DNA from: Candidatus Poribacteria bacterium
Lineage (GTDB): Bacteria > Poribacteria > WGA-4E > PCPOR2b
NCBI GenBank assembly: GCA_022567695.1
Contig: JADFGN010000173.1
Span: forward strand, 1-12,912
Reading direction: 5' to 3'
DNA: 12,912 nt
The position numbers and the translations under genes were made by a program. The notes under the pieces are model-generated. The model searched no databases. It was not told where the DNA came from and saw only the letters and a program-made list of their open reading frames with translations. Shown piece after piece: positions 2 to 10,742 of this stretch. The stretch's first letter is position 1. Every line of letters starts with the position of its first letter.

Positions 2-178
2 GCAGTCAATCTCCCCGTCATTGAGATTCATCTTTCCAACATCTACGCGCGTGAATCCTTCCGCCATCACTCCTATATTTCGGCCATTGCCATCGGCGTG
101 ATTGGTGGTTTTGGAGCGTACAGCTACGACCTTGCGCTGGACGCGATGATTCATATCTTAAAACAACCGAATTCGTAA
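2..178 (+). CDS. aroQ: 3-dehydroquinate dehydratase type II, C-terminal fragment. The 5' end lies outside the window.
   Basis: Frame 2 is open from the window edge to the TAA at 176-178. The translation ...[58 protein letters not shown] matches the conserved type II dehydroquinase C-terminus, including the HLSNIxAREx-FRHHS block. Confidence 0.8.
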
Positions 179-254
179 GCGTTCAGGGGTAGACTAGAAA
201 CCGAAGTTTTTCTTCGTAACGAGCCGAAATACCGGCTACAGATAGTTTTCCTGT

Positions 255-265
255 GTGAAGATTGA
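255..265. repeat. 11-bp direct repeat copy 1 (gtgaagattga). It is in the intergenic region upstream of the MTase operon and pairs with 4821-4831.
   Basis: The exact 11-mer is shared by the two non-coding regions that flank the three-gene module. This could be chance. Confidence 0.25.
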
Positions 266-312
266 TTTTCCTCGTATGAAAAAATCGTCAGAGAATACTG
301 TGATGAGAGATT

Positions 313-2343
313 TTGAAGAGATGTCTCAATATGCCTAAAAATCGAATTGCCGAAATCGGCGTAAAAGATATTCACGCCTTATGGTTGCTTACCCAAAATG
401 GGGAAGCGTTCCATAAAGAAGAAATCTACCAAATCTCACAGGAAGTCTTGAAATATTCAAACCAGTGTGACCTTAGAAGACTATTGGAAATTGGTGAGTA
501 TATAGGGCTTGTGTCACGACAAGGTGAGAGATGGCTATTAACTGCTGAAGGAGAAAACTTTAAGAAAGCTCTCCATTGGCGACTTTGGGTGCCTGCCGAA
601 TCGACTAAAACTATCCTACAAGCCAGTAGAATACTTCACTTCTTCATAGATCAACAAGCCTACGGAAAAAGACCTGTTGTTATTGACTTGTTTGCTGGCG
701 TTGGTGGATTAAGTCTGGGCTTCGCTGCGGCTGGATTTCAGGTTGCATTAGCAGTGGAGAACGACCAACAGGCATACGAAGCACATACCGAAAATTTCCC
801 TGAAACGTTGGTCCTTCAAGATGACGTCAACAAATTCGCTGACAATCCCAGAGAGTATATCGAAAAAATCAATCAACTCAACGGTGTCAAATTCGCGGGG
901 ATTATTGGCGGTCCGCCCTGCCAAGGTTTTTCATACATTGGTGAGCGAACAGCGCGTGATGAGAGGAACTTACTTACCTCTAGATTTATGGATATTGTTC
1001 TGGAGCTCAAGCCGGACTTTTTCGTCATGGAGAATGTGCCGGGGATAGCAACAACTGGTATTCCGCCGAAGTTTAGTGTTTACATCAAGCGGCTTGCAAA
1101 ATCCAATAGCGAACCTGCTTCATCAATCGTTGATAGATTGCCTTCTGTCCCAAAAAAGGTTGCCCAACGTGATAGGCAGTTTAGAAAAAGACAGATTAGT
1201 AACGTGATCGATGGCTTGAAGTCGAGAGTTAATGCGTGTTTCAAAAAAAACAGGTTAGTGAGCCCGAAAGATGTCCAAAAGGCTATCAGATTTTCCCATA
1301 ACGAACTTGAAAAACTGATTTCAAATATTGTCTCTGAGGTTTATAACGACGAACAACTCCCCCGCAGAATATTACAGGAAAGCGAAAACGAGGTCTGCAT
1401 AATCGCAATCGCAATAGTGTTTGCACAGCTCTTGGATAACAAGATGTTGGATTATGGTCGTGGCAAAGAGTTCTGTCGAGGATTCCGGGAGAAACCTCAT
1501 TATTCAGAGACCCTCCATCGAGCTATTCTGCAAATATATGACGACTACGATAACGCACCTTTCGTTGGTGAATATAAAGGGCAAGAAGTCGGTCCTGTAC
1601 TTCTTCACCTGCTTGAAAGAGCGGGAGAATTTTATGATGTTCCCGCGCCCGAAGTCCTAAACGCCGCTTCTTTTGGAACTCCCCAAAACCGAGAACGCAT
1701 GTTCATCGTCGGCATTCATAAGCGATTGAAAAAGACATTCGTTTACCCGGAACCGACACATTGTTGGAACGGCGCAAATGGCAAAGCTCCCACGCCCACA
1801 GCATACGATGCTATTCATGACCTACCCGACATTGACCAAATGCCGCACCTTATCGAAGATTACAAATTCAGCGTAAAAGAGCTCACCAAGCCGGAGTCGG
1901 ACTTCGTTCGGCAAATGCGGTATGAAATCATTGAAGACGGCGACCTATCCTTGTCCCGGAAAAGTTGGAATCCCTATTCCGTCGATTGCAGTAACCGAAC
2001 CACGCACGCTGAACATGTTGTAGAAAGAATGAAAACATTGGAATATGGCAAGCAAGACCCGGTCAGTCGCCGGTCAAGGTTACACCCAGACCGACCTTCT
2101 CCAACAATACGTGCAGGAACCAAGCAAAACAAAGGATCGCATACTGCGGTTCGACCCATTCACTACAAATGCCACCGCGTGATTTCAGTTCGGGAAGCCG
2201 CAAGACTGATGGGGTATCCTGATTGGATGACTTTTCATAAAGCAAAGTGGCACGGATTTCGACTGATTGGGAATGGCGTACCTCTGCCGCTATCACGCGC
2301 AATCGCGAAGCAGATTAAGGGACTTTTGTATGAATCATCTTAA
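313..2343 (+). CDS. Atypical DNA (cytosine-5)-methyltransferase. It has an N-terminal ~115-aa winged-helix-like extension and a ~210-aa basic insertion between motif VI and motif VIII. The ATG at 331 is the more likely start; the ORF opens at a TTG at 313.
   Basis: Canonical C5-MTase motifs were read directly. Motif I is VVIDLFAGVGGLSLGF (FxGxGG), motif IV is GGPPCQGFSYIG (PCQ), motif VI is FFVMENVPG (ENV), motif VIII is QNRERMFIVG (QxRxR), and motif X is RLIGNGVPLPLSRAIAKQI (GN). The C-terminal RVISVREAARLMGYPDWMTF matches the conserved RE-x-RLQGFPD block. A weak GAAGAG Shine-Dalgarno sequence precedes ATG 331. Confidence 0.85.
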   Translation: MKRCLNMPKNRIAEIGVKDIHALWLLTQNGEAFHKEEIYQISQEVLKYSNQCDLRRLLEIGEYIGLVSRQGERWLLTAEGENFKKALHWRLWVPAESTKTILQASRILHFFIDQQAYGKRPVVIDLFAGVGGLSLGFAAAGFQVALAVENDQQAYEAHTENFPETLVLQDDVNKFADNPREYIEKINQLNGVKFAGIIGGPPCQGFSYIGERTARDERNLLTSRFMDIVLELKPDFFVMENVPGIATTGIPPKFSVYIKRLAKSNSEPASSIVDRLPSVPKKVAQRDRQFRKRQISNVIDGLKSRVNACFKKNRLVSPKDVQKAIRFSHNELEKLISNIVSEVYNDEQLPRRILQESENEVCIIAIAIVFAQLLDNKMLDYGRGKEFCRGFREKPHYSETLHRAILQIYDDYDNAPFVGEYKGQEVGPVLLHLLERAGEFYDVPAPEVLNAASFGTPQNRERMFIVGIHKRLKKTFVYPEPTHCWNGANGKAPTPTAYDAIHDLPDIDQMPHLIEDYKFSVKELTKPESDFVRQMRYEIIEDGDLSLSRKSWNPYSVDCSNRTTHAEHVVERMKTLEYGKQDPVSRRSRLHPDRPSPTIRAGTKQNKGSHTAVRPIHYKCHRVISVREAARLMGYPDWMTFHKAKWHGFRLIGNGVPLPLSRAIAKQIKGLLYESS

Positions 2344-2382
2344 CGCCATTTGATTTAGCAATTCCAATGGCTGGAGGAGAAA

Positions 2383-3807
2383 ATGGCAAACATTGTCGTC
2401 GCATCACCGAGCAAGATGTTTTTCGTTGAAATGTTGACCCGAGACATTGATTTGAAAGACGCCATCTTGGATTTATTGGATAACTGCGTAGACGGAATAC
2501 TGAGGCAACTTAACGATCAACGACGGGAAGAGGTACTCAAATCGGAGAAACCATACGACAGCTATTGGGCTAAAATCACTGCGAATCCTGAGAAATTTTC
2601 AATAGAAGACAACTGTGGAGGTATATCACGAAAGATTGCTATCAACAGCGCATTTCGCCTTGGTCGATCGTTGGAGGACCTACAACGGGATAAGGACATC
2701 GCCACAGTTGGAGTACATGGCATTGGTATGAAGAGGGCACTTTTCAAGATGGGACGGCATTCCAAAGTCATTTCTCAACACAAGCGTAAAGCTTATTGTG
2801 TTGAAATTCCGCCGGAGTGGCTTGATGATGACAAAAATTGGAATCTGGAATTGAATGACACAGATATGGGTTGGGAATCTGACGGCACTTCTATAACCGT
2901 CACGAATTTGCATCAGCGCATAGCGTATCAGTTTGATGCCGATAGTAACCCTTTTCTAAAGGACTTACAAAAGGAGATTGCCAATCTCTTTGCAGTTAGT
3001 ATTAAGAAAGGCTTCCGAGTGTCTTTGAATGGAAAAGAAATTGAACCGGTTCGGCTTGAAATTTTATTTCCGAAAGATCTGACACAAGAATCTGCGATTC
3101 AACCCTACGCCTATAAGGGCACCGTAGACTATGTAGACATTGAACTCGCCATCGGTTTCTACAGAGAACTTGCCTCAGAGTCTGAACTTGAAGATGAGCA
3201 AAAGATACCGCGCAAGACAGATAACGCGGGATGGACGGTCATCTGCAATGACCGTGTGGTTTTGCATCATGACAAGATGCCAATGACGGGATGGGGCGTG
3301 AGAAACGTGCCCAAATATCACACTCAATTTATCGCCATTGCTGGTGTTGTCCAGTTCTCAAGTAACGATTCGCTCAAACTGCCCATCAATACGACGAAGC
3401 GTGGACTCGATACGTCATCTGCTATCTACTGGCACACACTCAACTATATGATGGAGGGGCTAAAGAAATTCACCGACTTTACAAATCATTGGAAAGGACG
3501 AGAATCGGAGACAGCAAGCTATTTTAGTGATATGTCTCCCAAAGATGCGACAGAAGTCCCCGAAGCGATTCCACAGAATATGTGGAAAGAAGTGCGGGGA
3601 TCGGGGGCAGATAACGAAAGGCGGTTCACCCCAAATCTCCCAAGACCGCCTAAAGACAAACTCAAACACCGTATTTCTTTTCTAAGACTCAAGGAAGAAA
3701 TCGAGATCGTTGGTGAAGATCTTTTTGGTAACCCAGAGGCTCCTCCAGCAGAGATTGGGAATCGGTGTTTTGAAGATGCTCTCAAAAAAGCGAAGGGGAA
3801 AGCATGA
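2383..3807 (+). CDS. GHKL-superfamily ATPase, MORC/MutL-like histidine-kinase-type ATPase fold, with a ~270-aa C-terminal region of unknown fold.
   Basis: The Bergerat-fold motifs are present. The N-box is AILDLLDNCVDG (ExxxNxxD), the G1 box is IEDNCGGIS (DxGxG) and the G2 box is VGVHGIGMKRALF (GxxGxG). A GGAGGA Shine-Dalgarno sequence lies 7 nt upstream of the ATG, which is 39 bp downstream of the MTase stop. Confidence 0.75.
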   Translation: MANIVVASPSKMFFVEMLTRDIDLKDAILDLLDNCVDGILRQLNDQRREEVLKSEKPYDSYWAKITANPEKFSIEDNCGGISRKIAINSAFRLGRSLEDLQRDKDIATVGVHGIGMKRALFKMGRHSKVISQHKRKAYCVEIPPEWLDDDKNWNLELNDTDMGWESDGTSITVTNLHQRIAYQFDADSNPFLKDLQKEIANLFAVSIKKGFRVSLNGKEIEPVRLEILFPKDLTQESAIQPYAYKGTVDYVDIELAIGFYRELASESELEDEQKIPRKTDNAGWTVICNDRVVLHHDKMPMTGWGVRNVPKYHTQFIAIAGVVQFSSNDSLKLPINTTKRGLDTSSAIYWHTLNYMMEGLKKFTDFTNHWKGRESETASYFSDMSPKDATEVPEAIPQNMWKEVRGSGADNERRFTPNLPRPPKDKLKHRISFLRLKEEIEIVGEDLFGNPEAPPAEIGNRCFEDALKKAKGKA

Positions 3808-4805
3808 GAGGTGGAAATGTCTCCTACAATTTGCGACCCAATAAATTCGTTGAAAGACAACTGTTTGTTGAACTACTGGGCAAGGTCTGTGATCAACCAC
3901 CCGACCAGTATGTTTATGTTTCACTCGGTGGACCCCAACTCGAAGATCAAAGGCTTGTACATCAACGTCTAGGGTTCACGAAACTCGTTTCGCTTGAAGC
4001 AAATCTGGTCGTATATCAAAGACAATTATTCAATCTACGTCCGTCGTACATAGATTGCAGGAATGACTCCACGGAAGATTTCGTGCGTGATTTTGACGTC
4101 TTTACGAATTTATACAGTGAGGAAGAATTCATCATCTGGTTTGATTATGCAGAAGCTAATGCGAGACGGGAACAGCTTATTGAATATGAGACACTACTGA
4201 GTCAACTCAAAGATCAGGACATCCTCAAAATCACAATGAACGCGAATCCCAACACCCTTGGCGAGATACGAAGTGGGGAAAAACAAGAGGATGCCCAGAA
4301 GAGACGTCTCGACGCTTTGCAGGGGCAGCTTGATGTCTATCTCCCCGATGCAATTGAACACACAGAGATGACGAGTCGTGGTTTTGTGCCGATTCTGTGC
4401 AATGCAATTGAGAAGGCTTCCCTGAATGCCGTTCAAGATGACCCCCGTTCGCAGCCGATTCCCGTAGCCATCTTCGCATACCAAGACGGCTACCATCAGA
4501 TGCTAACCGTCACGGTACGCCTCACTCGAAAAAACGAGGTCGATTCGTTCCGTCAAGACCTTCAGGCACAGGGATGGCAGTATCTACCAGCCGATTGGGA
4601 GGATGCGACCCAAATTAACGTGCCGAATCTGACGGCGAAAGAGCGGCTGTATATCGAAGGGTTGCTTTTTTCAAAAGACCACGAGACGCTTCACGAGGAA
4701 CTGCCTTTCCGCTTCCACCAAGACAACGAGTTGTCACTTAAAATACTGGAAGCATATGCAGAACACTATCGGAGATACCCCAGCTATTTTCAGGTCATGC
4801 TATGA
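3804..4805 (+). CDS. Hypothetical 333-aa protein, the third gene of the MTase/GHKL operon. It is translationally coupled, with its ATG overlapping the upstream TGA as ATGA.
   Basis: A long uninterrupted ORF begins in the 4-nt ATGA overlap with the GHKL gene's stop. I recognise no catalytic motif; there is no clear PD-(D/E)xK, HNH, PLD or Walker motif. Confidence 0.6.
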   Translation: MRGGNVSYNLRPNKFVERQLFVELLGKVCDQPPDQYVYVSLGGPQLEDQRLVHQRLGFTKLVSLEANLVVYQRQLFNLRPSYIDCRNDSTEDFVRDFDVFTNLYSEEEFIIWFDYAEANARREQLIEYETLLSQLKDQDILKITMNANPNTLGEIRSGEKQEDAQKRRLDALQGQLDVYLPDAIEHTEMTSRGFVPILCNAIEKASLNAVQDDPRSQPIPVAIFAYQDGYHQMLTVTVRLTRKNEVDSFRQDLQAQGWQYLPADWEDATQINVPNLTAKERLYIEGLLFSKDHETLHEELPFRFHQDNELSLKILEAYAEHYRRYPSYFQVML

Positions 4806-5098: not shown

Positions 5099-5983
5099 AT
5101 GAATGAAATCTACGGCATTGTGCCGCCGATGACCACACCTTTTGATCCAGCTGATCAGTTGGATGAAGATGCCTTTCGTGCGGATGTGCGCTATTTGGTT
5201 GAGACGGCGAAGGTTCACGGTCTGGCGGTCTGCGGCAGTACGGGCGAGGGGCACACGTTAACCACCGAGGAGACGAGGCAACTCACCGCATGGGCAATTG
5301 AGGAAGCGGCGGGACAAGTCCCTGTCATCACAGGGATTATCACCGATAGCACGAAGTCGGGGATTGAGCGTGGCAAAGCTGTCGCAGACCTCGGTGTCGC
5401 AGCGTTACAGGTGACGCCCGTTCACTACCTTTTCCGTCCCGACGACGATGCGATGCTTCGTCACTTCGCAGCACTCGTCGAAGGCACAGGCTTACCGTTG
5501 ATGATTTATAATGTGATTCCATGGACGTATCTTTCGCCGGAATTGCTCACCCGAATCATTACCGAAGTTGACGGAGTGATTGGCGTCAAACAAAGCGCAG
5601 GTGATATGAAACTGCTTGCAGACCTGCTCTTGATGCTCGGAGACGGCGGCCGCATCATGTCTGCTGTGGATGCCTTGCTCTACCCATCGTTTGCACTTGG
5701 CGCGCACGGCGCAATTGCAGCAATTCTTACGGCGGTACCGACACTCTGTGTCCAACTCTGGGACGCGGTCGAAGCAGGCGATCAGCAGACAGCGCGGGCG
5801 TTGCACGAAAAACTACTCCCCATCTGGAACGCAATCTCCGATGACAATCTTCCCGCGAATGTGAAATACGCGATGCAATTGCAAGGGCGTCCGGCAGGTG
5901 CCCCCCGTGCTCCGATGCCAGCAACTTCGTCGAAGCAACAGCCTGCGATTCGTCAGGCGTTGGATAATGCCGATCTACTCTGA
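5099..5983 (+). CDS. Dihydrodipicolinate synthase / N-acetylneuraminate lyase family class I aldolase (DapA-like).
   Basis: The family motifs are CGSTGEGHTLT (GxTGE), MIYNVIP (the YN catalytic Tyr region) and IGVKQSAGD (the Schiff-base Lys in GxK-[DEQ]-[AS]-[ST]-GD). An AAGGAAAA Shine-Dalgarno sequence lies upstream. GC and GC3 are noticeably higher than in neighbouring genes. Confidence 0.8.
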   Translation: MNEIYGIVPPMTTPFDPADQLDEDAFRADVRYLVETAKVHGLAVCGSTGEGHTLTTEETRQLTAWAIEEAAGQVPVITGIITDSTKSGIERGKAVADLGVAALQVTPVHYLFRPDDDAMLRHFAALVEGTGLPLMIYNVIPWTYLSPELLTRIITEVDGVIGVKQSAGDMKLLADLLLMLGDGGRIMSAVDALLYPSFALGAHGAIAAILTAVPTLCVQLWDAVEAGDQQTARALHEKLLPIWNAISDDNLPANVKYAMQLQGRPAGAPRAPMPATSSKQQPAIRQALDNADLL

Positions 5984-6047
5984 CCCACCTATATGAGTTG
6001 TTGGGTAAGATTTACTTGACAGCGACTAGAAATTCAAGGAGAATTTT

Positions 6048-6605
6048 ATGGCAGCACTCAATGATTTACGAAATGGTTTGGTGATTAGACTTAATGATGT
6101 GATTTATACCATCGTGGATTGCCAACACGTTAAACCCGGCAAAGGTGGGGCTTTTGCCCGTACCAAGATCAAGCGAGTAACCGGGGGAGCCGTAATCGAT
6201 CGGACCTTTCGCGCAAATGAAACGGTTGAAACTGTCCGTCTTGAAGAGCGTGAAATGCAATATATGTACAACGATGGAAGTTTGCTATATTTTATGGATA
6301 ACGAGACTTTCGATCAGCATTCATTGCCTGACAGTCTACTGGGAGATGGAATCAAATTTCTCAAAGAAGGGGAAAACGTCAAGGTCAAAGTTGACGGAGA
6401 CGTTCCGATGACTGTTGAATTACCGACTTTTGTTGTGCTAAAGGTCGTTGAGACCGATCCCGGATTGCGTGGTGACACTGCTAGCGGTGGTTCTAAGCCC
6501 GCGCAACTCGAAACTGGTGGAGTGGTTCAAGTTCCCCTGTTCATTAAGAAGGGTCAAATGATAAAGGTAGATACCCGTAAAGGAACGTATGCAGAGAGGG
6601 CTTGA
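6048..6605 (+). CDS. efp: Elongation factor P.
   Basis: The 185-aa protein has the conserved KPGKGGAFARTK loop, which is the modified-Lys region, and an EF-P-like three-domain layout. An AAGGAGA Shine-Dalgarno sequence lies 6 nt upstream. Confidence 0.9.
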   Translation: MAALNDLRNGLVIRLNDVIYTIVDCQHVKPGKGGAFARTKIKRVTGGAVIDRTFRANETVETVRLEEREMQYMYNDGSLLYFMDNETFDQHSLPDSLLGDGIKFLKEGENVKVKVDGDVPMTVELPTFVVLKVVETDPGLRGDTASGGSKPAQLETGGVVQVPLFIKKGQMIKVDTRKGTYAERA

Positions 6606-6608
6606 CTT

Positions 6609-7085
6609 ATGCCTGAAGATAAATCACCATCCACTTTGGATTTGCTCAAGCAAGTTTGTGACATTATGGAGAACCACGACCTAGCGGAAGTTTACCTGCG
6701 TGAAGGCGAGGTGACTCTTAGAGTCCGGCGATCCGGCACATCGATGCCTGGTCCTCTCGTCATACAACCCCCTTCGTATATGCATTCACAAACGGAACCT
6801 ACGGAGTCTAACTCTGCACCATCGGTTCAATTGCCGCATGAAGTAGAAGAGGTCATAAAATCACCGATGCTTGGCAGATTTTATCGGGCTCCTAATCCAG
6901 ATCAACCTCCCTATGTTGAGGAGGGAGATACTGTAGCAGAAGAAACGGTACTGTGCCAAATCGAAGCGATGAAGATTTTCAATGATATACCGGCGCCTTT
7001 CTCTTGTGAAATCCTTGAGATCCTTGTTGAAGACGATAGCGTTGTTGAGTACGATCAACCCTTGTTCCGAGTCAGACGAACATAA
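6609..7085 (+). CDS. accB: Acetyl-CoA carboxylase biotin carboxyl carrier protein.
   Basis: The C-terminal biotinyl domain has the EAMK biotin-attachment motif (CQIEAMKIFNDIPAP) and a Pro/Ser-rich linker. It sits immediately upstream of accC, as in the conserved accBC operon. Confidence 0.85.
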   Translation: MPEDKSPSTLDLLKQVCDIMENHDLAEVYLREGEVTLRVRRSGTSMPGPLVIQPPSYMHSQTEPTESNSAPSVQLPHEVEEVIKSPMLGRFYRAPNPDQPPYVEEGDTVAEETVLCQIEAMKIFNDIPAPFSCEILEILVEDDSVVEYDQPLFRVRRT

Positions 7086-7107
7086 AAAACATGTTCAATG
7101 AGAGCTT

Positions 7108-8484
7108 ATGTTTAATAAGATTTTGATTGCGAATCGTGGCGAAATTGCTGTTCGGATTATTCGGACCTGTCGAGACATGGGTATCAAAACCGTTGCAGTG
7201 TATTCGACCGCCGATCAAGACGCTTTGCATGTCAAGTATGCTGACGAAAAATATTGCATTGGCCCGCCCTCTCCAACTGAGAGCTACCTCAAGCATCTCA
7301 GTCTTATTACGGCTGCCGAACTCACCAATGCGGATGCAATTCATCCCGGCGTCGGTTTTCTGGCGGAGGATGCGCTTTTTGCCGAGATTTGTAAAGAGCA
7401 CAAAATCACGTTCATCGGTCCTTCAATAGATAACCTGACTGAAATGGGGGATAAGGCAGAGGCACGCGAAACGATGGCAAAAGCGGGGCTAGAATTGGTT
7501 CCCGGTAGCCGACGTCAGAAGGGTGGTATCTTAAAGAAAAACCCTAAAAAGGGAGTGATTGAAAGTGAAGAGGAAGCTTTAGAACTTGCTGAGAAAATAG
7601 GTTATCCGGTGGGGATTAAAGCCGTATCTGGCGGTGGCGGACGTGGCATACGAATCGCGTATAATGACATGGCCCTGCGCAACCTTTTCTACACGGTAAA
7701 ATCGGAAGCTGAAGCGGCGTTTGGCAATGCCGAGGTATACATAGAGAAGTGGATTGAGAACGCACGACACATTGAGATGCAGGTGCTTGCCGACAATCAC
7801 GGTAATGTCATCCACCTTGGCGAGCGAGAATGTTCAATCCAACGAAAACAGCAGAAGTTAGTAGAGGAAGCCCCATCCCCGTCGTTGTCTCCTAAAATTC
7901 GTAGTGAAATCAGCAGGGCCGCCATTAGAGCTGTGAGATCAATCGGGTTTTCAAATGCCGGGACAATTGAGTTTATCGTTGATCCGGAGGATAGTTTTTA
8001 TTTCCTTGAGATGAATACACGGATACAGGTAGAACATACGGTGACGGAGATGATTACCGGAATCGATCTCATTAAGGAGCAGATTCGTTTAGCAATGGGA
8101 GAGGAACTCGGATACGATCAATCAGACGTGGACGCAATGATGAATGGTCATGCCATCGAGTGCCGGATCAATGCTGAAGACCCTGACAATAACTTTACGC
8201 CTTCTCCCGGTAAAATCGACGGGTATCTTCCTCCTGGAGGAATCGGTATACGGGTGGATAGCCACCTCTATGATGGTTACGTTGTGCCTCCTTTTTACGA
8301 TTCACTGGTTGCAAAACTGATCGCTCATGGCCGGGACAGAACGGAAGCAATTGCCAGAATGAAGCGCGCGTTGGATGAGTTTACAATTGGCGGAATTAAG
8401 ACAACTATCCCTTTATGCAAGCGGATTATGAATGACGAACGTTTCTTGAACGGCCTCGTCTATACCAACTTTTTAGAGGGATGA
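7108..8484 (+). CDS. accC: Acetyl-CoA carboxylase biotin carboxylase subunit.
   Basis: The N-terminus [19 protein letters not shown] matches the biotin carboxylase start. It carries the ATP-grasp glycine-rich loop [14 protein letters not shown] and the conserved [14 protein letters not shown] block. Confidence 0.92.
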
Positions 8485-9505: not shown

Positions 9506-10087
9506 ATGCAGAGACAATCGATTTGCCACCTAATCATCGCCCTATTTGCAATCGGGTTGATTGCCTGCGGCGATTCCGACGATGATAAAGACATTCAACA
9601 GGATGTCCCCGCGAAATCCACAACCCAAACCCCGATAGATAGCGAGGATATTGCTGTCCGCGAAGAGGTCGATTTTAACGTTGAAGAGGGGGCGATTCGC
9701 GATTTGTTCACCTCCCATGCCGCTGCCGTCACTGAACGTAAGGTTAATAAAATCATGGATCACTGGTTGAAGCTTGAAACGCGAGATGTGTTCATGGCAT
9801 GGAATTTCTGGAACGCTTTTACCCGGATCGAAACGTGGAAAGGGGTAAAAGGGTCCTTTGCTGGGACATTTGAGAAATTCAATAATGCAATGAATGTTAC
9901 CATCACGGAGGTCGGAATCGATAAGCGGGGAAAGGAAGCGACACTTCAGGCGGATTACCAATGGTTACAGAACGGTAAGCTTATCGCCGCGTTCAAGAAG
10001 GATAATAAAGAACAGTGGAAAATCCAAGCAATTGATTTTTCAAACAAGGATCTGATTAAGTGGATTAAAACCCCAGAACCTCAATAA
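9506..10087 (+). CDS. Lipoprotein with an NTF2-like (SnoaL/DUF4440-like) domain; first member of the paralog pair.
   Basis: A signal peptide precedes the lipobox LIAC|G, and the mature protein begins with an acidic, low-complexity segment. The NTF2-like core runs IRDLFTSHAAAVTERKVNKIMDHWLK...DVFM. An AAGGAG Shine-Dalgarno sequence lies upstream. Confidence 0.7.
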   Translation: MQRQSICHLIIALFAIGLIACGDSDDDKDIQQDVPAKSTTQTPIDSEDIAVREEVDFNVEEGAIRDLFTSHAAAVTERKVNKIMDHWLKLETRDVFMAWNFWNAFTRIETWKGVKGSFAGTFEKFNNAMNVTITEVGIDKRGKEATLQADYQWLQNGKLIAAFKKDNKEQWKIQAIDFSNKDLIKWIKTPEPQ

Positions 10088-10130: not shown

Positions 10131-10742
10131 ATGAAACGCCAATCCATCTTTTACCTAATCGTCACTTTATTTGCAATTGGGTTGATTTCCTGCGGTGGCT
10201 CGGATGATAATGAAGAAGCTGAATCAAATCTGACCACGAAACCAACAGGCCAAACATCACCTTCCGACGACGAAGGGCCTGCTGTAAAAACGATAGAAGT
10301 TGACTTCCTAGCTGCGGAAGCAGAAATTAAAAGGGTGTTTACAGAACATGCTGACGCCGTTGGCGAGGGCCAAAAAGCACTCGACAAAATCATGAGTTAT
10401 TGGTTGGAAAGCAATAACGAAGATGTATTTACCTCTTGGACATTTTGGGCGGGAGCTTTTGAGAAAAACGTCGGCTGGGACGATATCAAAAATGGCTGGG
10501 TCGGAATTTTTCGTCTTCGCAGTGGTAAGATGACCGTTGACATCTCAAGCCTCTCAATCGATTCAAAAGGCAAAATCGCAACGTTACGTGCGACATATAA
10601 ATGGGCCGTCAGCGGCGATTTGATTGCGGCGATGCAAAAGGATGAAGGCGAATGGAAAATTCGCGCTATCGATTACACGAATGCAAGATTTGGAAAACAG
10701 ATTAAAGAACTTACCAAGCCCGGCTATAAAAATCCAGCGTAA
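10131..10742 (+). CDS. Lipoprotein with an NTF2-like (DUF4440-like) domain; second member of the paralog pair.
   Basis: A signal peptide precedes the lipobox LISC|G. The protein is clearly paralogous to the upstream gene, sharing LFAIGLI(A/S)CG.SDD, IM.(H/Y)WL and DLIAA..KD...WKI.AID(F/Y). An AGGAGG Shine-Dalgarno sequence lies upstream. Confidence 0.7.
   Translation: MKRQSIFYLIVTLFAIGLISCGGSDDNEEAESNLTTKPTGQTSPSDDEGPAVKTIEVDFLAAEAEIKRVFTEHADAVGEGQKALDKIMSYWLESNNEDVFTSWTFWAGAFEKNVGWDDIKNGWVGIFRLRSGKMTVDISSLSIDSKGKIATLRATYKWAVSGDLIAAMQKDEGEWKIRAIDYTNARFGKQIKELTKPGYKNPA

Follow-up and report, generated by a model that had tools for sequence, protein, structure and literature searches.

The motif order of C5 cytosine DNA methyltransferases (C5-MTases) is among the most rigidly conserved of enzymes; variation is normally limited to the TRD, which separates motif VIII from motif IX, and to terminal extensions. 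In the plant chromomethylases (CMTs), a chromodomain that recognizes H3K9me2 is inserted between motifs I/II and motif IV. An additional N-terminal domain is known from M.SsoII, in which the regulator (residues 1 to 71), an HTH of the 434-repressor/Xre kind, is attached by a flexible, Pro-rich linker (PMC3978073); this regulator binds a palindrome located where the R and M genes diverge (PMC3978073, PMC2760811). At the level of gene context, an HATPase_c_3-type GHKL gene lies beside a cytosine methylase gene in Dcm-linked MORC/paraMORC restriction-modification neighborhoods, mobile and sporadic cassettes that typically include SFII helicases and recognizable nucleases (Iyer, Abhiman, and Aravind 2008, PMC2292703). 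Our analysis of the window, the whole 12,912-nucleotide stretch of the Candidatus Poribacteria contig JADFGN010000173.1 (assembly GCA_022567695.1), revealed an enzyme of this known kind with two unusual additions: an N-terminal winged helix-turn-helix (wHTH) and an internal insert that has no detectable relative among 1.84 billion representative proteins.

The methyltransferase is encoded on the forward (+) strand, as are all features given below, by the open reading frame at nt 331 to 2343 (670 amino acids from the ATG at 331, with an alternative TTG start at 313), and the product is identical to NCBI MCH8292726.1. The protein scored above threshold with PF00145 (198.2 bits; cutoff, 22), the match being split into two stretches, and with TIGR00675 dcm (164.2 bits; cutoff, 100.65), and every catalytic motif is present. 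Motif I (FAGVGG; residues 121 to 126, nt 691 to 708) is preceded by the N-terminal extension and followed by motif IV (PPCQGF; residues 195 to 200, with PCQ as P196-C197-Q198), motif VI (ENV; residues 234 to 236, nt 1030 to 1038), motif VIII (QNRER; residues 452 to 456, nt 1684 to 1698), and the GNGVP of motifs IX-X at residue 647. In an alignment of 46 homologs, F121-A-G-V-G-G, P196-C197-Q198, and E234-N235-V236 are invariant, as are Q452, R454, R456, G647, N648, and V650, and motif VIII, the TRD, and motifs IX-X stand in canonical order. Motif search and alignments place the catalytic N-half, with motifs I, IV, and VI, at residues 116 to 240 (nt 676 to 1050). The C-half with the TRD, at residues 421 to 670 (nt 1591 to 2340), aligns to residues 142 to 369 of PDB 3g7u and comprises a helix before motif VII, motif VIII QNRER, the TRD, and motifs IX-X, in that order. 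Judged by its sequence, the protein is a C5 cytosine DNA methyltransferase with a normal-looking catalytic core, as the initial annotation had stated. The TRD itself is normal-sized and homologous to that of 3g7u, and extra recognition elements are not obviously needed, a point that tells against a role of the additions in DNA binding.

Between the two halves lies a segment with no counterpart in these relatives. The distance from ENV to QNRER, put at about 212 residues when the gene was first inspected, measures 215 residues; the nearest relatives have 39 to 46. A phmmer search of the PDB aligned residues 117 to 240 with residues 5 to 124 of 3g7u and residues 434 to 668 with residues 142 to 369, leaving about 193 query residues opposite 17 in 3g7u, and M.HaeIII gave the same two-block alignment. 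Because QNRER aligns to motif VIII of both 3g7u and M.HaeIII, its original assignment as the true motif VIII is upheld, and the extra segment precedes motifs VII and VIII and lies outside the TRD. The architecture thus varies from the canonical VI-VIII spacing of about 40 residues, and no catalytic feature has been lost.

The inserted all-alpha domain was placed at residues ~243 to 420 (nt 1057 to 1590) by the gap in the alignments with 3g7u and M.HaeIII and by AF2 models of both the full-length protein and the insert alone. It begins just after motif VI (ENVPG) and has a net size of about 175 to 178 amino acids (170 to 198 across the family). The predicted fold consists of eight helices, including long ones at residues 281 to 306 and 312 to 338, and a short beta-hairpin at the end. 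Modeled on its own, the insert was predicted with confidence (pLDDT, 92.7; pTM, 0.86), which supports the earlier suggestion that it is an independently folded domain. The accompanying description of the insert as Lys/Arg-rich holds for a stretch at residues 253 to 310, where its basic residues cluster, and not for the insert overall, which carries a net charge of +7 over 188 amino acids versus +10 over the 237-amino-acid C-terminal part. By column composition, the best-conserved segment is a basic patch, K275-x3-(K/Q)-R-D-R-Q-F-R-K-R (residues 275 to 287, nt 1153 to 1191), in which positions 280, 286, and 287 are K/R in 100% of the sequences and Q283 is retained in 43 of 46. The patch sits where the long helical hairpin starts; the middle helices are variable. 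A conserved patch of this kind might just as well bind RNA or an acidic surface on a protein, which again counts against a DNA-binding platform.

Arginine codon usage had been taken to indicate that the insert is of separate origin. A contrast in AGR/CGN codons is indeed seen between the insert (9/7) and residues 434 to 670 (3/16; Fisher P = 0.03). However, AGR codons are equally common in residues 1 to 114 (5/8) and in the catalytic N-half (3/5), so that the codon boundary falls at about residue 434 and not at the insert, and the contrast does not recur in homologs. We therefore do not take codon usage to indicate that the insert is foreign. A profile of the insert, compared with the same 1.84 billion (1.84e9) representative proteins, matched this methyltransferase family only; no relative or donor was found by PDB profile, Pfam, or tblastn against phages and plasmids, and no match to the fold was found in the PDB or BFVD. 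With the boundary misplaced, the pattern not reproduced, and no donor domain found, the idea that codon usage reveals a separate origin is not supported.

The two additions strictly co-occur and are confined to one family. All 68 retrieved family members combine a long ENV-to-PQxRxR spacing (207 to 235 residues) with a late motif I, whereas the next 50 relatives have a spacing of 39 to 57 residues and none of them shows either feature. A full-length alignment search found one insert-bearing genome, a Chloroflexota MAG, among the best 80 loci. Apparently longer insertions in Firmicutes and Pelagibacterales loci (tblastn, ~2.1 kb) proved to be two adjacent C5-MTase genes in different frames, with a spacing of 40 to 42 residues in each. 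In a crude neighbor-joining tree, the insert family forms one clade relative to the short methyltransferases, and partner types are interleaved within it; both additions were probably gained once and then kept together. Our results define a rare, uncharacterized enzyme family by its wHTH and insert. Given the rigidity of C5-MTase motif order, a stably inherited, self-folding domain at the motif VI/VII junction is unusual.

The N-terminal addition is a predicted wHTH at residues 11 to 70 (nt 361 to 540; AF2 pLDDT, 84 to 96) with the elements H11-22, E26-28, H29-38, H45-57, E61-64, and E67-70 (H-S-H-H-S-S). The segment initially noted as winged helix-like corresponds to helix 3 and the beta-wing of this predicted topology, in agreement with that description. 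Pfam gave only scattered subthreshold matches of the wHTH to winged-helix families, no sequence relative of the region was found in the PDB, and no Xre or HTH_3 match at an E value of ≤1 was found by Pfam in 30 family members. The connector from the wHTH to motif I is predicted to be structured (pLDDT, 93 to 96) and contains an HWRLW motif (residues 82 to 86, nt 574 to 588), identified in the 46-sequence alignment, in which W83 is invariant and H82 and R84 are nearly so. In the putative recognition helix (residues 45 to 57), no polar or basic position is conserved; a specific DNA contact common to the family is thus not indicated, a further point against a platform role.

We tentatively propose, rating the reading as a whole a little short of even, that the protein may be a functional type II-like C5-MTase of the 3g7u subfamily with two lineage-specific additions. 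To the same guarded degree, we suggest as the likeliest mechanism that the wHTH and the insert might together provide an accessory platform for DNA binding, adjoining the catalytic cleft. In the established C5-MTase fold (M.HhaI, M.HaeIII), strand beta-5 terminates in motif VI, at the edge of the active site, so a domain emerging 7 to 10 residues later should lie near the DNA cleft. By its place right after motif VI, the insert would lie on the side of the Rossmann sheet that borders the active site. The full-length AF2 model (pLDDT, 88; pTM, 0.86) argues for fixed rather than floppy packing of the domains. The patch K275...KRDRQFRKR287, at the start of the hairpin, may contact the DNA backbone flanking the target site, and such contact could raise affinity, processivity, or site selection. 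From these considerations we infer that the additions would contact DNA and act as a clamp or platform; binding of DNA by the insert is plausible.

An alternative that we consider unlikely is transcriptional autoregulation, in which the N-terminal wHTH would bind an operator at the promoter of its own system, as the N-terminal regions of M.SsoII and M.Ecl18kI do, and the insert would dimerize or switch the protein between methylation and repression. Fusions of C5-MTases to DNA-binding regulators at the N terminus are well established (PMC3978073, PMC2760811), the variable surface of the putative recognition helix would suit system-specific operators, and a separate C-protein gene beside the methyltransferase gene was present in none of the loci examined. 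The upstream DNA speaks against it: no inverted repeat with arms of ≥10 nt was present in the 330 nt upstream here or in seven of eight homologous loci, a search that operators with shorter arms or imperfect operators would escape; the upstream regions of nine loci contained no consistent palindrome; and upstream regions are not conserved between homologous loci. The operon is co-directional, with no R gene here. The initial annotation had likened the N terminus to the SsoII type, a comparison that fails because the prediction here is of a winged helix whose connector is structured and conserved (HWRxW), whereas M.SsoII carries its 434-repressor/Xre-like HTH on a linker that is flexible and Pro-rich. 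Autoregulation also leaves unexplained why the insert is constantly paired with the wHTH.

A second alternative, which we regard as somewhat less probable again, is that the long helical hairpin (residues 281 to 338) dimerizes the methyltransferase or gates its active site as a means of autoinhibition, without direct DNA contact. Two antiparallel helices of 26 to 27 residues within a helical bundle are a common dimerization device, and the location of the insert after motif VI adjoins the catalytic pocket. In DNMT3A, a subunit interface is built from the helix that follows motif VI. However, conservation is lowest in just those helices of which the interface would consist (column conservation, 0.19 to 0.41), and the conserved element is the basic patch rather than a hydrophobic stripe.

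The genes downstream suggested a third possibility: that the insert is a docking surface for a GHKL ATPase, as put forward when the gene was first inspected, for the product of the gene that follows the GHKL gene, or for both, coupling methylation to an effector. The GHKL (HATPase_c_3) ATPase (474 amino acids; nt 2383 to 3807; PF13589, E = 1.5e-9) is followed by a PF20553 gene (Methyltransf_35, "putative O-methyltransferase"; 333 amino acids; nt 3804 to 4805; Pfam, 236 bits), the start of which overlaps the GHKL stop by 4 nt and which adjoins the GHKL gene at every locus examined. Searches with Pfam, NCBIfam, and PADLOC revealed no nuclease or helicase domain in any of the three gene products. 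The C-terminal 315 amino acids of the GHKL protein had no Pfam match, and the protein had no sequence relative in the PDB. Our literature search on Methyltransf_35/PF20553 found nothing, and papers on MANTIS and on V. cholerae VcSduA proved unrelated. The GHKL-MTase neighborhood is kept in eight independent loci, the triad with PF20553 persisting in two gene orders from 71% down to 37% methyltransferase identity, and the crude tree places the GHKL-linked state in both deep and crown clades, such that it may be ancestral within the insert family. The GHKL gene is a conserved neighbor, yet it is not specific to insert-bearing methyltransferases. Five distinct insert-bearing lineages lack GHKL and instead have a homologous PD-(D/E)XK-like (D...EAK) nuclease-like gene of ~400 to 424 amino acids together with Vsr or HhH-GPD; the insert and its basic patch are intact in these REase/Vsr-linked lineages as well as in the GHKL-linked ones of both gene orders. 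Conversely, GHKL orthologs (48 to 49% identity) with PF20553 adjoin methyltransferases of 362 and 381 amino acids that have a VI-VIII spacing of 39 to 40 residues and neither N-terminal extension nor insert. Docking is therefore contradicted from both directions, and we consider it very improbable. As the additions are kept whatever the partner module, their role is intrinsic to the methyltransferase. Since coupling to GHKL and PF20553 does not appear to run through the additions, that module must recognize either a feature common to long and short methyltransferases or the methylated DNA itself.

That the segment is an artifact or selfish element (a gene fusion, an assembly error, an intein, or a misassigned TRD) is scarcely credible: its one attraction is a QxRxR-like decoy, QFRKR (residues 283 to 287, nt 1177 to 1191), at the canonical motif VIII distance from ENV, which might initially make the residues after it look like a giant TRD, but this decoy lies within a predicted long helix and matches over 8 columns only (hhalign P = 0.055), whereas QNRER and its motif VII context align properly to 3g7u and M.HaeIII; the reading frame is continuous, and its architecture is shared by the 68 homologs from independent ENA, JGI, Logan, and NCBI assemblies; and the segment is all-alpha, without Hint or splicing motifs or Cys/Ser...His-Asn flanks. 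Internal duplication as a source of the insert was likewise rejected, as hhalign comparisons with the preceding, following, and N-terminal segments were not significant.

Returning to the DNA-binding platform, we mention a broader version of it that would be a long shot: the methyltransferase with its wHTH and orphan insert might be a self-contained DNA-clamping or target-marking subunit into which unrelated effector modules have repeatedly been plugged. One such module would be the PD-(D/E)XK-like nuclease accompanied by Vsr or HhH-GPD; the other would be the pair of GHKL and PF20553, which is nuclease-less. If so, the additions would be a generic adaptor or regulatory platform, and methyltransferases with a domain lodged where motif VI meets motif VII would make up an architecturally new class of C5-MTase, a bacterial counterpart of the chromodomain embedded in plant chromomethylases. 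If the additions were to touch DNA or to control access to the active site, they would represent a new mode of control of cytosine methylation and a natural scaffold for methyltransferase engineering.

Among known systems, the closest in its core is 3g7u, a putative C5 DNA methyltransferase from the Escherichia coli O157:H7 prophage CP-933R, which matches the protein described here over the catalytic core and from the TRD through motifs IX-X (E = 2e-65 by phmmer; TM-score by Foldseek, 0.85, target normalized). The C-terminal signature KGSHTAVRPIHY..RVISVREAARLMGYPDWMTFH..KWHGFR.IGN.V is common to this methyltransferase, 3g7u, and compact relatives of 360 to 440 amino acids. Unlike our protein, 3g7u lacks an N-terminal extension, and its motif VI is separated from the helix that precedes motif VII by only 17 residues rather than about 193. 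M.SsoII and M.Ecl18kI share the presence of an extra HTH-type domain ahead of motif I; the winged helix, structured connector, co-directional operon, and internal domain set our protein apart from M.SsoII as that enzyme has been described. The locus resembles MORC/paraMORC loci, to which it is likened by gene neighborhood, in having a GHKL gene beside a DNA methylase gene and, in related loci, Vsr-type repair genes; it differs in its third gene, PF20553, a putative methyltransferase, and in having no recognized nuclease or helicase. Like the plant chromomethylases (ZMET2/CMT3), finally, the protein carries a whole folded domain within its C5-MTase catalytic domain. The high rank of ZMET2 among the Foldseek matches reflects the common core. 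In contrast to the chromomethylase insertion, however, the domain described here is an orphan all-alpha domain, lies between motifs VI and VII, and is bacterial.

The 670-aa C5 cytosine methyltransferase (MTase) encoded at nt 331-2343 on the forward strand (NCBI MCH8292726.1, annotated only as DNA cytosine methyltransferase) contains motifs I (FAGVGG, residues 121-126, nt 691-708), IV (PPCQGF, 195-200, nt 913-930), VI (ENV, 234-236, nt 1030-1038), VIII (QNRER, 452-456, nt 1684-1698) and X (GNGVP, 647-651, nt 2269-2283), all on that strand and in agreement with the initial annotation. Because none of the catalytic motifs is disrupted or varies among the homologues, m5C methyltransferase activity is almost certain. 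The Pfam match to PF00145 is broken into two separate stretches. The closest solved relative, PDB 3g7u from Escherichia coli O157:H7 prophage CP-933R, aligns in two blocks (residues 117-240 with chain residues 5-124, and 434-668 with 142-369), and the M.HaeIII alignment splits at the same place. The spacing from ENV to PQxRxR is 207-235 residues in 68 homologues (37-71% identity), whereas the 50 relatives that follow have 39-57. This difference corresponds to a net insertion of about 175 aa, for which residues 243-420 (nt 1057-1590) are the best limits. These alignments and the family spacing bear out the large insertion previously proposed between motifs VI and VIII, and QNRER is motif VIII, not a misassigned string. 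The QxRxR-like string QFRKR (residues 283-287, nt 1177-1191) lies 46 residues after ENV, the usual place of motif VIII, and is highly conserved family-wide, but we treat it as a decoy and not as the relic of a duplication: it sits inside a predicted 26-residue helix, and when the insert profile was compared with that of the segment after it, only the 8 columns at QFRKR aligned, which was not significant (P = 0.055, probability 1%).

An AlphaFold2 model built from a 46-sequence alignment (mean pLDDT, 88; pTM, 0.86) predicts the insert to be all-alpha, with helices at residues 248-256, 261-269, 281-306, 312-338, 343-350, 352-369, 378-386 and 393-407 and a small terminal hairpin; the canonical helix preceding motif VII restarts at residue 422. 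Modeled alone, residues 236-440 gave a confident fold (pLDDT, 92.7; pTM, 0.86), and the insert is thus predicted to be an autonomous domain. Its conservation is uneven, the central helices being poorly conserved and the end and first ~45 residues well conserved. The start has the consensus RLAKSIGxPAxxIVxxLPxVPKxxAKRDRQFRKRLVS, in which P271 is invariant, the positions of R280, K286 and R287 are 100% K/R, and Q283 is found in 43 of 46 sequences. In the N-terminal extension, residues 11-70 are predicted to follow the classical winged-helix order (H-S-H-H-S-S), the segment earlier singled out as winged-helix-like forming helix 3 and the wing. Searches of this region against Pfam returned just scattered subthreshold winged-helix matches (AAA_assoc_C, WH_AprA, Mrr_N, and HTH_45), which agree with the predicted fold without proving it. 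The putative recognition helix (45-57) is conserved solely at hydrophobic and glycine positions. Helix 1 carries a conserved H15-x-x-W18 motif, and further short helices at residues 72-112 (pLDDT, 93-96) bear a nearly invariant H82-W83-R84-x-W86-x-P88.

Both additions occur in 68 of 68 retrieved family members and in none of the nearest insert-less relatives. The insert measures 170-198 aa across the family, which forms one clade relative to the short MTases in a crude neighbor-joining tree without bootstrap. An insert-only HMM run against 1.84 billion representative proteins gave 24 matches at E ≤ 1e-3, 21 of them at E ≤ 1e-10, the strong ones being members of this MTase family, either whole or truncated at contig ends; the best 80 loci listed from species-representative genomes include at least one gene with the insert, from a Chloroflexota MAG. 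From the co-occurrence, the single clade and the confinement of the insert to one family, we conclude that this lineage probably acquired the additions only once. The inserted domain is an orphan, a status that neither establishes nor excludes the separate origin suggested earlier from composition. The claimed Lys/Arg richness holds locally, whereas the overall charge is only +7 over 188 aa, compared with +10 over 237 aa in the C-terminal catalytic part. Likewise, the arginine codon contrast is real (AGR/CGN, 9/7 in the insert versus 3/16 in residues 434-670; Fisher p = 0.03), but AGR codons are as frequent in residues 1-114 (5/8) and the catalytic N-terminal half (3/5), so the break lies near residue 434 and not at the insert borders; the pattern is inconsistent across seven homologous genes. 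Many genomes (L067-L089; Firmicutes and Pelagibacterales) have two adjacent 3g7u-like C5-MTase genes in tandem, which only in tblastn appear as a single long gene.

In the C5-MTase fold, strand beta-5 terminates with motif VI at the sheet's active-site edge, from which the target recognition domain (TRD) also departs; with only a few residues separating it from motif VI, the insert would be expected to lie next to the DNA cleft. The additions are partner independent and always occur together, rigid packing against the core is predicted for them, and their best-conserved elements are the Lys/Arg/Gln cluster and the His/Trp/Arg motif. On these grounds we tentatively favor, at somewhat less than even odds, a model in which the winged helix and the insert together form an accessory DNA-binding platform or clamp.

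Transcriptional autoregulation by the N-terminal domain, as implied by the earlier analogy to SsoII-type enzymes, seems rather unlikely. In M.SsoII, residues 1-71 make up a regulatory region that shares homology with the phage 434 repressor (PMC3978073); a flexible, Pro-rich linker tethers this region, whose binding site is an inverted repeat within the promoter region (PMC3978073; cf. PMC2760811). Here, in contrast, a winged helix and a structured, conserved connector are predicted. Inverted repeats with arms of ≥10 nt were absent from the 330 nt upstream of the MTase gene and from 7 of 8 homologous upstream regions, and the upstream regions do not align with one another. Operators that are short and imperfect would escape a scan of this kind, so the result makes autoregulation less likely, not impossible. 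Just ahead of the MTase start codon, nt 254-269 (TGTGAAGATTGATTTT) and nt 299-314 (TGTGATGAGAGATTTT), 45 nt apart, make up an imperfect direct repeat; this family has two copies and could have arisen by chance. Oligomerization or gating is a distinctly unlikely reading.

Downstream and codirectional with the MTase gene are genes for a HATPase_c_3 (GHKL) protein (474 aa, nt 2383-3807) and a PF20553 (Methyltransf_35, "putative O-methyltransferase") protein (333 aa, nt 3804-4805), the latter starting within the former by a 4-nt overlap. The window is a 12,912-nt contig of a Candidatus Poribacteria MAG, in which the cassette (~nt 178-4805) resembles an island within a run of conserved housekeeping genes, lying between an aroQ-like 3' end (nt 1-177) and dapA-like, efp, accB and accC genes (nt 5099-8484); its GC content is mostly 41-47%, reaching at most 52% near the 3' end, and that of neighboring genes is up to 55%. 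Farther along, tandem paralogous genes (nt 9506-10087 and 10131-10742) code for small proteins whose signal sequences are of lipoprotein type and almost the same (…LFAIGLI(A/S)CGxSDD…).

That the insert is a docking surface for the GHKL ATPase, as first proposed, is very improbable, given a double dissociation across 13 loci sorted by MTase type and partner genes. Insert-bearing MTases accompany GHKL and PF20553 in the order M-G-35 (the window, L001, L009, L011 and a decayed copy, L010; contigs of equal length in both hit lists suggest nine more cases) or G-35-M (L012 and L095). At L002/3, L004-6, L007, L008 and L096, with insert and basic patch intact, they instead adjoin a nuclease-like gene (~400-424 aa) plus Vsr or HhH-GPD. 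Conversely, short MTases of 362 and 381 aa (L092 and L094), with neither addition and canonical VI-VIII spacing (39-40 residues), stand beside GHKL and PF20553, their GHKL proteins being 48-49% identical to that of the window. Partner types are interleaved on the crude tree, and effector modules have therefore been exchanged around a constant MTase architecture. That the insertion is an artefact, against a spacing shared family-wide, is scarcely credible.

The nuclease-like genes (minus strand; L002, 10035-11273; L004, 9039-10310; L007, 2854-4050; L008, 9102-10376; L096, 8008-9264) are convergent with the MTase gene, with overlapping 3' ends in several loci. Their products, 33-56% identical to one another, have no Pfam match and share a conserved D-x12-14-E-A-K motif; they probably make up a family of type II restriction endonucleases not yet annotated as such. 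HhH-GPD DNA glycosylase genes adjoin C5-MTase cassettes (L094, 2751-3461; L093, 7117-7788; L096, 9331-10041) where other loci have Vsr, possibly as an alternative T:G mismatch repair partner. GHKL and PF20553 form a conserved two-gene module (nt 2383-4805; also L001, L009, L011, L012, L092, L094 and L095), accompanying long and short C5-MTases in two gene orders. It matched no recognized nuclease or helicase domain, PADLOC or NCBIfam model or PDB sequence relative, and the literature searched did not mention PF20553; the pair may constitute a previously undescribed module, linked to Dcm, for effector or modification functions. One metagenome holds two cassette copies with identical MTases (L010, 9033-9968; L011, 6758-9165); the L010 copy seems to be decaying or rearranged, with its GHKL gene shortened to 311 aa and AAA/nSTAND and NB-ARC genes in place of PF20553.

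Judged by its defining motifs, all present, the MTase is catalytically a C5-MTase of the 3g7u-like subfamily, the VI-VIII spacing being its sole departure from the norm among the features tested. No family member appears to have been characterized, going by the NCBI record and the source names of the homologues ("hypothetical protein," "site-specific DNA-cytosine methylase," and "DNA cytosine methyltransferase"). Known architectural departures among C5-MTases comprise TRD variation, terminal extensions (SsoII, EcoRII, and MspI), circular permutation and split enzymes, and plant chromomethylases embed a chromodomain between motifs I/II and IV. To our knowledge, they do not include a folded domain lodged between motifs VI and VII together with an obligatory winged helix, and the predicted combination makes this a clear and unusual architecture.
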